DNA from: Salinispira sp.
GTDB lineage: Bacteria; Spirochaetota; Spirochaetia; DSM-27196; Salinispiraceae
Reading direction: 5' to 3'
DNA: 64,000 bases
NCBI GenBank assembly: GCA_965602015.1
Contig: OZ271918.1
Location: 3,680,001 to 3,744,000 of the forward strand
In this document: positions 35,174-39,368 of the stretch, piece by piece
Numbering within the stretch: the first letter of the stretch is position 1
Layout: each line of letters begins with the position of its first letter
The notes under the pieces: generated by a model
Seen by the model: only the letters and a program-made list of their open reading frames with translations
Database searches by the model: none
What the model was told of the DNA's origin: nothing
Translations under genes and position numbers: made by a program

Positions 35174-37744
35174 TTATTGGGCGACGATATTCACCAGCTT
35201 GTTGGGCACCGCAATAACTTTGCGGATGGTCTTTCCCTCGGTCAGTTCCCGTATGCGCTCGTTCTCCAGGGCGAGTTTCTCCAGCTCATCCTTCGGCGTG
35301 TCGGCAGGTACCGTCAGTTTGGCCCGGACCTTGCCGTTGACCTGGAGAACCAGCTCGATTTCATCGTCTTTGGTCAGCGCCTCATCGTATTCCGGCCAGC
35401 TCTCGAGAGCCGTGCTGCCGGTGCCGCCGGCCATTTCCCACAGTTCCTCGCTGAGGTGAGGCGCGTAGGGGCTCAACAGCAGGATAAACCGCTTCCATAT
35501 GTCAATATTGATGGTTTCTGCCTTGAAGGCCTCGTTGATAAAAATCATCATCTGGCTGATTGCCGTGTTGAAGTCCAGATTTTGTGTGTCCTGGCCGACT
35601 TTTTTGATGGTTTTGTGGAGGATTTTTACCAGATCCGCATTCGGTTCAGCGCTATCCATGGGTTTGTGGGCGGTTCTCCAGACCTTGTCGAGAAAACGGT
35701 GTATGCCGATGAGGCCCTGGGTCGACCAGGGTTTTGACTGCTCCAACGGTCCCATAAACATTTCGTAGAGGCGCATGGAGTCGGCGCCGAACTCCCGAAT
35801 GATGTCGTCGGGGTTCACCACGTTTTTAAGGCTCTTGGACATTTTGGCGATGACCTGCGTCACCGGCTTTCCGGTTGCTTTTTCAATGTATTTTCCCTGG
35901 GATACTTCTTCCACCTCATCAGTGGGTACCAGGGTGGAATCATCCCGCTGGTATGCATGAGAGGTAATCATTCCCTGATTCACCAGCCGGGAAAAGGGCT
36001 CCTTTGTATTGACCACTCCGATATCGTAGAGGACCTTGTGCCAAAATCGGGCGTACAGCAGATGCAAGACCGCGTGTTCGGTTCCTCCGACATAGAGATC
36101 CACCGGCATCCAGTAGCGGATTTTTTCCGGGTCGGCCAGGGCTGCGCTATTGCGGGGGTCGATGTAGCGCAGGTAGTACCAGCAGCTGCCGGCCCATTGG
36201 GGCATGGTATTGGTTTCCCGTACACCTTTCTCACCGGGTCTTCCGGGCACCTCGGCTTCAACCCAGCTACGCACATTCACCAGAGGGCTTTCGCCGGTTC
36301 CCGAGGGTTTGTAGCTTTCGACCTCAGGCAGGGTGAGGGGCAGTTCGGTTTCGGGAATGGGTATGAACTCGCCCTCGGCGTCCTGTACCAGGGGAATGGG
36401 CTCACCCCAATAGCGCTGACGGCTGAAAATCCAGTCTCTGAGCTTGTAATTTACCGCACGCTCGCCCCGGCCCTGTTTCTCGAGCCAATCGATAATGGTC
36501 GATTTGGCCTCGTCGGTCGGAAGACCGGTAATAAGCCCCGAGTTCACTGAAATGCCTTTTTCGGTGAAAACCTCGCTCATGTTCGGGTGAAAGTTGCTTA
36601 ATTCTACGGAGCTGGTGTCGCTGATATCCGCGGGATCCGCGACAACCCTGATAATCGGAAGCTGGTATTTTGTCGCGAATTCCCAGTCTCTCTCATCGTG
36701 TCCCGGCACGGCCATAATGGCGCCGGTGCCGTAACTTATGAGGATGTAGTCGGAAATCCAAATGGGTATTTTCTGATCATTCACCGGATTGACCGCATAT
36801 GCGCCGGTGAACACCCCGGTTTTGTCTTTGGCGAGATCGGTGCGCTCCAGGTCGCTTTTGAGGGATGATTTGCGGATGTACTCTTCAACGGCGCTGCGCT
36901 GATCATCGGTGGTGATTTCGTGAACCAGCGAGTGCTCGGGAGCCATCACCATGTAGGTGGCACCGAAGAGGGTATCCGGCCGGGTGGTGTACACCTCAAG
37001 GATGTCATCCCGCCCGTCCAGGGAAAATTTGACGTTTGCCCCTTCACTGCGGCCGATCCAGTTGCGCTGCATGGCCTTGAGGGATTCGGTCCAGTCGAGG
37101 TCTTCCAGGTCTGCCAAAAGCCGCTCGGCGTACTCGGTTATTTTGAGCATCCATTGGCGCAGCGGGCGCCGCTCAACGGGGTGCATCCCCCGCTCGGAGC
37201 GGGGACCGTCGGGGGTGGTTATTACCTCTTCGTTGGCGAGAACCGTGCCGAGCTTTTCGCAATACCACATGGGTATTTCATCGACGTAGGCCAGACCACG
37301 CTCGTACAGTTTGAGAAAAATCCATTGAGTCCACTTGTAATATTCTTCCGTGTGGGTGGCGATTTCCCGGTCCCAATCGTAGCTGAAGCCCAGTTGCTTG
37401 AGCTGACGGCGGAAGGTGTTGATGTTGTTTTCCGTTGAGGTTCGCGGGTGGGTTCCGGTTTGTATGGCGTAGGTCTCCGCCGCCAGACCAAAGCTGTCGA
37501 AACCCATGGGGTGGAGAACATTGTGACCCGTCATGCGCAGGTAGCGGCAGAAAATATCCGTCGCCACATATCCTTCGGGATGTCCGACGTGAAGTCCGCT
37601 TCCCGAAGGATAGGGGAACATGTCCAGAACGTATTTGCGTTTTTCCGGCGGAAAATTCGGGTCTTCGCTGACCGCGAAGGTTTTATGATCTTCCCAGTAC
37701 TTCTGCCATTTTTTTTCAATTTCCGCGAAGGGGTACTTTTTCAC
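35174..37744 (-). CDS. leuS: Leucine--tRNA ligase
   Basis: [14 protein letters not shown] (HIGH), CP1 editing domain ([22 protein letters not shown]), KMSKS; GTG start. Confidence 0.98.
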
Positions 37745-37836
37745 CGCTGATTCCTCGTACGGACCGCCGTCGGGACCGCGGTGCCGAATATCAATTAGAC
37801 GAAATATAATGAGCGGCTATAGTAGCGCAAGAGTTT

Positions 37837-38006
37837 AAAAAATAAAACCCCCGGGTAAGGAGGTGAAACCCGGGGGCGCACTGTCGTTCCGGGGCCAGGC
37901 GCCTAAGATCGCCGAAATTGCGGATGACAGAAAGAAGCATGTGATGTCAGCAAATGCCGTTTGCTCGTTGATGACATTTTTACATGGCCGCCCTATCAGG
38001 GCGGAG
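37837..38006 (-). ncRNA. Candidate small RNA with four stem-loops and an anti-SD terminator loop
   Basis: Promoter TTGACT(38039-38034)-17-TAGGTT(38016-38011); stems at 37988-38004, 37938-37986 and 37881-37930; terminator CCCCCGGG-TTTCACCTCCTTA-CCCGGGGG-TTTTATTTTTT at 37876-37837. Confidence 0.65.
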
Positions 38007-38096
38007 CAGTAACCTAAACCATCGGCGAATAATAGTCAACATGCTTGGCGAGTAAATTTCTATGTTGTGATGATTTATTTCGGCTTCTTCCCCAGA

Positions 38097-39368
38097 CTAG
38101 CGGGAGCCATTCTCCGCCTCCGGGTGGTAGGCTGCGGGCCGGTATTTCATGAGCTGAACTGCCTTGCTGCCCATTGCCTGTATGATGAAGGTGCCTATTC
38201 GCGTCTCGATTTTTTGGCCCTTCACCGGAAGCCCGGTAAGCTGTTCGAGCACGTAGCCTCCGACGGTTTCGGAGTTCCTGTCGTGTTCGATTTCCGTACC
38301 CAGCACGTCTTCGAGAATGTAAATCGGCGTATCGCCCTGGATGCTGTACCAGCCTTCCTGGCTGTTTTTGAATATCTTTGCGCCGTCGGGTTCTTCATCT
38401 TCATCGTAAATTTCTCCGATGATTTCCTCCACCAGATCTTCCATGGTTACGATGCCCGCCAGGCCTCCGTACTCGTCGAGGATAATTGCCAGGTTGAGCC
38501 GTTCCTCCTTGAGTCGGCGAAAGACCCGGTAGACCTTCCAGGTTTCCGGGAAATATACCGGCGGGAGCATGACGTCCGCCAGGCAGCCCTCGGTTTCGCC
38601 CCGGGCGGCCATGCGGGTCAGATCCTTTTCGAGAACCACACCGACGATATTTTCCGGATCATCCTGGTACACCGGAACCCTCGAGTGCCCCTGGTCCGCA
38701 ATAAGCGGCAGGGCTTCGTCGATCTGGGTTTTCTGTTCGAGGCTAAAAACGTCCTTCCGGTGGGTCATGATTGCGTGGACCGTCACATCACTGAAGCGGA
38801 ATACCGATTTAACCATGCGGGATTTGTAGTTCTCCAGAATGCCTATGTTCTCGGCGTGTTTTACCATGTGGAGGATTCCGTCCAGGGTGAAATAGTCCCG
38901 GGCCTTGGAGCGTCCGAAGCGGCTGATAAGCCGGGAGAAGGCATTGATGAACACGATGACCGGAAAAAACAGGAAGGACAGGCTCTTGATAATGCCTGCG
39001 GTCTGCAGGCAAATCCACTCGTTGTTGCGGATTGCGAACTGCTTGGGGAGCACTTCGCCGAATATCAGAATAGCCATGGTGAGGACGCCGGTGACAATGG
39101 CAAGGGGTATGTTGCCGAAGAGTCTGATGGATAGTTCCGACGTAATAACCGATATTGCCACGTTTACCAGGTTGTTTCCGATCAGAATGGTGGTCAGCAG
39201 CTTGTCGGGGTGCTTGTGCAGGTTCTCTACTATTTTGCCTCGGCGGGGATAGTGAACCTTGGTATGTTCTATCTGCATTAATGAGAGACTGGTAAATGCG
39301 GTTTCGCTTGAACTGAAAAAAGCGGAGAGAAAAAGCAGGAAAATCAGACCGGCCAGGCTGGCGATCAT
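38097..39368 (-). CDS. CNNM/CBS/CorC (hemolysin-family) transporter-associated protein
   Basis: SAFFSSSETAFTS, TILIGNNLVN, IFGEVLPK, GHSRVPVY, DEYGGLAGIVTMEDLVEEIIGEIYDE. Confidence 0.94.
   Translation of the reverse strand: MIASLAGLIFLLFLSAFFSSSETAFTSLSLMQIEHTKVHYPRRGKIVENLHKHPDKLLTTILIGNNLVNVAISVITSELSIRLFGNIPLAIVTGVLTMAILIFGEVLPKQFAIRNNEWICLQTAGIIKSLSFLFFPVIVFINAFSRLISRFGRSKARDYFTLDGILHMVKHAENIGILENYKSRMVKSVFRFSDVTVHAIMTHRKDVFSLEQKTQIDEALPLIADQGHSRVPVYQDDPENIVGVVLEKDLTRMAARGETEGCLADVMLPPVYFPETWKVYRVFRRLKEERLNLAIILDEYGGLAGIVTMEDLVEEIIGEIYDEDEEPDGAKIFKNSQEGWYSIQGDTPIYILEDVLGTEIEHDRNSETVGGYVLEQLTGLPVKGQKIETRIGTFIIQAMGSKAVQLMKYRPAAYHPEAENGSR

Follow-up and report, generated by a model that had tools for sequence, protein, structure and literature searches.

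The minus strand upstream of leuS in a Salinispira genome (G000) carries a predicted small RNA of about 171 nt which, judged from sequence, is one member of a real, uncatalogued and widely conserved sRNA family that would act like the known C-rich-loop sRNAs. The family mark, a predicted terminator with a ACCUCCUU loop, is near order-wide and patchy in other spirochaetes, and the predicted family is multi-copy, with most copies under an ECF-type promoter motif. Present in nearly all genomes of the order, with a fixed putative seed, exchangeable bodies and a readable tie to a class-wide ECF sigma factor, the family offers a direct handle on post-transcriptional control in a phylum where this genome (99.7% complete) has no detectable Hfq, and it poses the question of how a generic anti-Shine-Dalgarno (anti-SD) tail would choose its targets, or whether there is any choice at all.

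The RNA upstream of leuS

Positions without a contig name refer to the window, the whole stretch of 64,000 nt (64 kb) that was analysed. The predicted RNA occupies 37837..38007 of the minus strand, its start site deduced from the -10 element, and these predicted ends agree with the length of about 170 nt claimed originally. A sigma-70-type promoter was found where it had been proposed, with the -35 element TTGACT (38034..38039, minus) and the -10 element TAGGTT (38011..38016, minus) separated by 17 nt; at the same place the same-genus relatives G005 and G006 have TTGACA and TAAATT, and TTGACT and TAATTT, respectively, so that the -35 element, a TAnnnT -10 element and the 17-nt spacer are all kept. 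This promoter was not among the results of a simple promoter scan. The RNA folds in four parts, all on the minus strand: a 5' hairpin P1 of 7 bp (CCGCCCT-GAT-AGGGCGG, 37988..38004), an imperfect stem P2 (37938..37986), a nested stem P3 (37881..37930), and a terminator hairpin (37848..37876) whose arms, 37876-37869 and 37855-37848, form 8 G-C pairs around a 13-nt loop, UUUCACCUCCUUA (37856..37868), followed by a U-rich tract (37837..37847). The 5' hairpin, the two longer stems and the GC stem with its loop and U tract had all been described in the original prediction and were confirmed. The fold had a z-score of -3.07, and 1 of 200 shuffles folded equally well.

According to the fold computation, the inner 11 bases of the terminator loop are unpaired (p >= 0.99), while the outer U and A pair. 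The 16S 3' tail of this genome is UCACCUCCUUU, and with both of its 16S genes ending in ...GAUCACCUCCUUUCU, 10 nt of the loop agree with the genome's own 16S; the claim of a perfect copy of the 16S tail thus stood for 10 nt and not for 11, the final A being that of the E. coli 16S tail. Among 233 intergenic terminator-like hairpins of G000, in which the commonest loop length was 4, two bore a ACCUCCUU loop, and both are members of the RNA family. A scan of the window with Rfam 15 gave 0 matches at or above the gathering cut-off, and the best score near the locus (E 0.5) covered the terminator portion only and was far under the cut-off; the Infernal/Rfam check proposed with the original prediction thus left the RNA uncatalogued, without a match to any Rfam family.

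The downstream neighbour, leuS (35174..37744, minus; TIGR00396, 1130.9 bits, over cut-off), lies outside the RNA, and the upstream neighbour (38097..39368, minus) encodes a CorC/GldE-like CBS-domain membrane protein whose best matches, TIGR03520 and PRK11573, are both under cut-off; a TP0584 family match, a spirochaete mark, was found among the neighbouring genes. The letters of the leuS promoter first proposed, TTGCGC-16-TATATT, are present and are not kept in G005 or G006. What is kept is a TACTAT/TAGTAT -10 element at 37824-37819 (TACTAT here, 37819..37824, minus), downstream of the RNA terminator. With its own promoter and terminator, a separate leuS -10 element downstream and no conserved short ORF, the RNA appears free-standing, as had been proposed. 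The motif AUGUAAAAA (37977..37985, minus), an AUG-UAA start-stop with no SD ahead, was found in G000, G005, G006 and G003.

In both G005 and G006 the element lies at the equivalent position, with a TTGACw-17-TAnnnT promoter and an identical terminator and U-tract. Folded separately, each yielded a 5' hairpin (of other sequence), a second stem at the equivalent place, a nested third stem and the terminator; the z-score was -4.27 for G005 and -1.41 for G006, the latter not significant alone and obtained on a stretch that ended inside the terminator. P3 retains the same three helices with changed letters in these relatives: CUGUC/GACAG, UCCG/CGGA and GGCG/CGCC in G000 correspond to GUAUC/GAUAC, UCAU/AUGA and GAGUG/CACUU in G005, around a P3 loop (AUCUUAGG, 37909-37902, minus) in which UCUUAGG is kept in both and which is a candidate second seed. 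A metagenome search for close homologues returned three matches, two repeating a known family member and one lying in coding DNA, and therefore the covariation of the body stays based on three sequences (G000, G005 and G006). Elsewhere in the taxonomic family, which comprises 8 genomes, the body of G003, G004 and G007 is another one and includes a second ACCUCCUUU, and a copy is found elsewhere in G002.

A terminator module across the order

The pattern GGTT-N1/5-ACCTCCTTWCC was found in 89 of the 99 genomes of the order, with 1-4 copies each, and the reversed pattern, used as control, gave 5 matches in 4 genomes, so the conservation of the loop in relatives, on which the original prediction had been staked beforehand, was borne out. 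Most matches were inspected in their surrounding DNA, and 108 of 116 distinct ones lie within perfect stems of at least 6 bp, of whose pairs the pattern itself fixes only two. Among 114 hairpins, that is, all loci collected at that point with stems of at least 8 bp, 102 have a U-tract 3' of the stem, on the same strand as in the leuS-side RNA, and 1 has an A-tract 5' of it; this one-sidedness indicates that the anti-SD strand is the terminating strand. From these 114 we drew 52 hairpins to span the genera, pre-selected for good stems and including kin that are not independent, and in their alignment pairing holds in 95.7% of cells, and both sides change in 93. None of 500 shuffles reached either value, and slid controls reached at most 73.9% and 30; the covariation that the original prediction had called for is thus present in the terminator stem.

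Of 57 genomes with a completeness of at least 90%, 55 matched a covariance model built from the 52 hairpins, the two without a match being G001, of the same taxonomic family as G000, and G074. Loops of the family are typically ACCUCCUUU and begin with a variable U/C filler. Among the hits found by the model only, 20 of the higher-scoring ones were inspected, and all 20 keep CCUCCUU; 14 of them keep ACCUCCUUU, 3 are without the A and 3 read CUCCUCCUUCC, an invariance that is partly built into the search pattern and the model. The 5' bodies are exchangeable and lineage-specific, ranging from about 20 to more than 300 nt. Beyond the order, the model matched in 17 of 150 other genomes of a phylum sample, and in 9 of 21 within the same class; of 20 such places inspected, one (L383, weak and outside the class) held a plain terminator that lacks the loop motif. 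When 185,579 named genomes were scanned, 94 of 120 pattern loci fell in spirochaete records, including Alkalispirochaeta, Spirochaeta, Marispirochaeta and Thalassospirochaeta, and perfect stems of at least 6 bp were present at 82 of these 94 loci as against 0 of the 26 others. Treponema, Borrelia and Leptospira titles were absent among these loci, which holds for that exact pattern only.

Several variant arrangements were also observed. In one group of genomes (f11; L033, L045, L056 and L155-L163) the leuS-side copy measures 220-330 nt, stands under tandem sigma-70 and ECF-type promoters and contains the conserved blocks GUUGACAU, CUGCGUUGCAG and GAUARGAUAG, as a larger structured RNA. In 5 of 5 genomes of the AT-rich genus g27, from another order, the version is about 80 nt long, AUACCUCCUUU occurs internally and the loop of the terminator carries CUCCUCC (L374-L378), and in genus g28 a tandem pair of anti-SD hairpins immediately precedes leuS (L366-L367).

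No description of the family was found in the full-text literature, a search outside which most subscription papers fall, nor in the main text of PMC5737381, PMC11109978, PMC7160235 and PMC4987935, whose motif and sRNA lists sit in supplements; PMC4987935 gives a map of start sites for Spirochaeta aurantia, with 34 sRNAs called. A conserved regulatory sRNA family for free-living spirochaetes was likewise not found in the literature searched.

Promoters and an ECF sigma factor

Within 420 nt upstream, the motif GTWAC-N15/17-GTT occurs in 73 of the 106 copies with enough upstream DNA, compared with a mean of 3.3 and a maximum of 8 in shuffles, 9 on the reverse strand and 0 downstream; it was also found in 15 of the 20 model-only hits. 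A sigma-70 pattern is present in 25 of the 33 copies without the GTWAC motif (shuffles: mean 6.4, maximum 13) and both patterns occur together in 23 copies, with some promoter pattern in 98 of the 106. The same GTWAC motif stands directly upstream of a gene of the order encoding a 176-aa ECF sigma factor (TIGR02937, over cut-off) in 29 of 30 loci, the thirtieth having no upstream DNA, and upstream of the gene in 18 of 19 loci elsewhere in the class; comparison gave the promoter consensus TGTWAC-N14/15-GTKGTT. The sigma gene is present in 39 of 41 relatives and, beyond these, in 19 of 21 genomes of the class, and in G000 the gene (C1:2522833-2523363) and its motif lie behind cysS (together C1:2522833-2523392, minus; L302). 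ECF sigma factors commonly regulate their own genes, and for this reason we infer that the conserved ECF sigma factor reads the motif. The leuS-side copy of G000 and both of its same-genus orthologues are without the GTWAC motif and have a sigma-70-type promoter instead, so this copy would not follow the ECF sigma factor directly; as an ECF-sigma-dependent sRNA it was rejected, the promoter motif common with the sigma gene being absent. A weight-matrix scan for the ECF motif gave 9 sites in G000 and 37 in the reversed genome; its spacer was fixed, neither the second RNA copy nor the site of the sigma gene itself, which is one base longer, was recovered, and nothing was drawn from the counts.

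That second copy (C1:2438965-2439084, minus; L010) is about 85 nt long, has an ECF-type promoter and an extra single-stranded UUCUCCUUUU, and has counterparts in G005 and G006 (L164 and L165). A third candidate sRNA of G000 (C1:1013447-1013570, plus; L456) combines an ECF-type promoter with a single-stranded CCCUCC and a terminator-like hairpin with a pyrimidine loop; its downstream gene is presumably aconitase-like, and G006 shares its promoter and 5' part but lacks the U-tract. In many copies (L063, L068-L079 and L123-L132) the palindromic box TGCAAACGATTACA or its reverse, which we take to resemble a LacI-family operator, overlaps the sigma-70-type promoter.

Targets, rival readings and related systems

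The exposed and conserved anti-SD loop argues that the RNA is probably a trans-acting, Hfq-independent sRNA that represses translation through pairing between loop and SD. The sigma-70-type promoter would drive an RNA of about 170 nt, with transcription ending at the U-tract; the G-C-rich loop would seed, chaperone-free, on the SD sites of other mRNAs and repress their translation, and the choice of target would fall to single-stranded stretches of the body that are particular to each lineage, in this copy the UCUUAGG loop or a U-rich linker. Of the trans-acting sRNA or 16S-tail mimic first proposed, the uncatalogued RNA with its exposed, conserved anti-SD loop held good, while a conserved target was not found by ranking of loop duplexes, by complements of body motifs or by perfect 9-mer SD sites in 10 genomes. 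The loop by itself is generic: our own rough gene calls in G000 gave 3185 genes, with a choice of starts that favours SD sites, and 169 of 3170 could pair perfectly with the loop over at least 7 nt, while at least 6 nt were available at 11 of the 48 genes called in the window. The full AAAGGAGGU site stands ahead of 7 called genes, 6 of which are copies of one repeated gene. The six near-identical copies of this 124-aa gene, presumably GxxExxY-like, lie at C1:1924932, 1930324, 1935521, 3343987, 3346993 and 3793238. Ahead of an ATG the family 9-mer has few perfect complements, 1-11 in each of 10 genomes and in most of them close to the number in the reversed control, and the 44 perfect 9-mer sites in these genomes other than G000 led to unrelated proteins (33 scanned). 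The trxA leader, the one attractive site among the body-motif targets, was rejected, as 4 of 4 relatives do not keep it.

A doubtful but possible alternative is that the RNA damps translation broadly, its loop binding SDs according to their strength and competing with the ribosome, so that leaderless mRNAs, including that of the ECF sigma factor, escape. What is conserved is no more than the 16S tail, which leaves little room for specificity, and no conserved target emerged. In addition, the gap between motif and ATG of the ECF sigma gene is 0-7 nt in 29 of 29 order loci (2 nt in this taxonomic family, 4-7 nt in most others), leuS looks leaderless in 26 of the 30 order loci (L027-L056), with a -10 element just ahead of its start, and G000 has a leaderless class, the distance from the end of TANNNT to the start being 6 nt in 151 genes, as against about 45 at other spacings. 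With repeated genes removed, signal-peptide-like proteins, called by a crude rule, are enriched among strong complements (33 of 155 versus 167 of 1245, p = 0.011), which fits an envelope role, yet is also expected from strong SDs alone, since strong SDs on exported proteins require no sRNA. A broad damper would, however, require RNA amounts near ribosome levels; in G000 longer leaders separate two other GTWAC sites from lipoprotein-like genes, the sigma leader measures 16 nt in one genus of another order, the leuS-side copy is without the ECF motif, and leuS of this genus, like that of G001, has a leader. The conserved body motifs are moreover lineage-specific, which suggests specific targets. 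Tentatively, the family might form a brake tunable by SD strength, in which the ECF sigma factor induces most copies, exported proteins are damped first and leaderless mRNAs pass, the leuS-side copy being a basal sigma-70 member. If broad damping were true, it would provide a toxin-free route to the leaderless bias that has been proposed for MazF stress ribosomes (PMC5001579). That the loop is instead a decoy for a protein binding the 16S 3' tail or a pyrimidine-rich loop, and not for mRNA, seems unlikely to us: the loop is fully single-stranded, and the A and UUU flanking CCUCC are kept family-wide as in the genome's own 16S tail, but the 5' part of that tail, GAUC, is not kept, the loop starting instead with the variable filler, and 6 of the 20 model-only hits are A-less variants. 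The KH domain of Era requires GAUCA.

The remaining alternatives turn on the neighbouring genes. A reading in which the RNA belongs to the 3' UTR of the upstream mRNA and pairs with the ribosome-binding site of that same message, for which icaR is the precedent, would suit the many copies downstream of a same-strand gene; no terminator was seen between the stop of the corC-like gene (38097) and the RNA promoter, so that read-through would end at the hairpin of the RNA. We nevertheless hold it to be quite improbable in view of the promoter patterns that most copies have of their own (98 of 106), the divergent upstream gene in 3 of 3 inspected copies of genus g14, and upstream genes that, by eye, differ among copies. 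Proximity to leuS could point to a leuS attenuator or T-box-like leader: among 64 of 92 tabulated genomes with hairpin and leuS on a shared contig and strand, the distance is at most 300 nt in 32, 301-1000 nt in 11 and more than 1 kb in 21, and two genomes of another order also have the hairpin near leuS. The attenuator, already named as an alternative in the original prediction, is very unlikely given those 21 distant hairpins, the downstream leuS -10 element in the 26 of 30 loci, among them 17 of the 18 that have no hairpin close by, a cost of 19.5 kcal/mol for forcing open the 3' arm of the terminator with no rival antiterminator helix, and the failure to find a conserved leader peptide. 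For the T-box family, RF00230 gave nothing at this locus, its sole site in the genome being a T-box-like element elsewhere (C1:118328-118645, plus) at 84.4 bits, under cut-off. The association of hairpin and leuS looks like old gene order rather than control. An antisense RNA, or antitoxin, against a plus-strand transcript starting from TATAAT (37805-37810) had been suggested too, and the plus strand does carry TATAAT, with a perfect SD exposed where the hairpin loop is mirrored. This we regard as hardly credible, for TATAAT is absent from G005 and replaced in G006 by a TATACT that overlaps the leuS -10 element, the plus-strand SD has no start codon at usable spacing in three genomes, and the polarity of the terminator is one-way. 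As a type I antitoxin the RNA was rejected, an overlapping toxin ORF with promoter on the opposite strand not being found. What probability the trans-acting sRNA and these alternatives leave over falls to a hairpin without regulatory role.

Taking the trans-acting sRNA as the preferred reading, we compared it with known systems. It is not 6S RNA, as RF00013 had no match anywhere in the complete G000 genome and the fold consists of four separate hairpins, not a long rod with a central bubble; tmRNA, an RNase P-like and an SRP-like motif were located elsewhere in the genome. Termite-leu (RF01730) was rejected as well, with three weak matches elsewhere in the genome, none over cut-off and none at the locus. 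MicA and RybB are sigma-E-dependent sRNAs that depend on Hfq and carry 5' seeds; the likeness, as the sRNA arm of an ECF-sigma regulon, applies to the 73 of 106 copies and not to the leuS-side copy, and the putative seed of the spirochaete RNA differs in being the terminator loop. Like Termite-leu, TD-1 and TD-2 are structured spirochaete RNA motifs, with 28 and 36 representatives, found in T. denticola only (PMC1950547), and these two were compared by description only.

The closest parallels lie in sRNAs with C-rich loops, and at sequence level the RNA has their features, namely a conserved unpaired motif complementary to SDs and its own promoter and terminator, with no conserved ORF. Cuckoo/CcsR (RSs0680) of alphaproteobacteria carries CCUCCUCCC in each of its 2-4 adjacent hairpins, has a terminator-like hairpin apart from these and binds Hfq (PMC4615179). 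It shares with the spirochaete family the anti-SD-like hairpin loops, variable stems, several copies per genome and a stress-sigma promoter, whereas the spirochaete RNA has one ACCUCCUU loop in the terminator itself (two in some relatives) in a genome where Hfq was not found; membership was rejected, as the loop is UUUCACCUCCUUA, in the family ACCUCCUUU, and not CCUCCUCCC, and there is one motif loop rather than 2-4 adjacent ones. RsaE and other UCCC RNAs of Staphylococcus aureus, whose expression is Hfq-independent, likewise pair with SDs through an unpaired C-rich motif (PMC2790875), but their UCCC lies in internal unpaired regions, they belong to another phylum, and no Rfam match occurs here. 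The 6C sRNA of Mycobacterium tuberculosis binds many mRNAs through C-rich loops without a chaperone (PMC6486639) and differs in being actinobacterial, with poly-C loops rather than a copy of the 16S tail in the terminator. RepG of Helicobacter pylori pairs through the C/U-rich loop of its terminator with a G-repeat in the tlpB leader (PMC8295292), and it resembles the RNA in using such a loop as pairing site and in its two-part build of 5' body and terminator; the spirochaete loop differs in being the 16S anti-SD tail, the family is multi-copy and mostly ECF-sigma linked, and no sequence relationship was found. Tests of membership came out negative for cuckoo, T-box, 6S, Termite-leu and Rfam families, and it is through the design of its C-rich loop that the RNA would work like RepG, RsaE, cuckoo and 6C.
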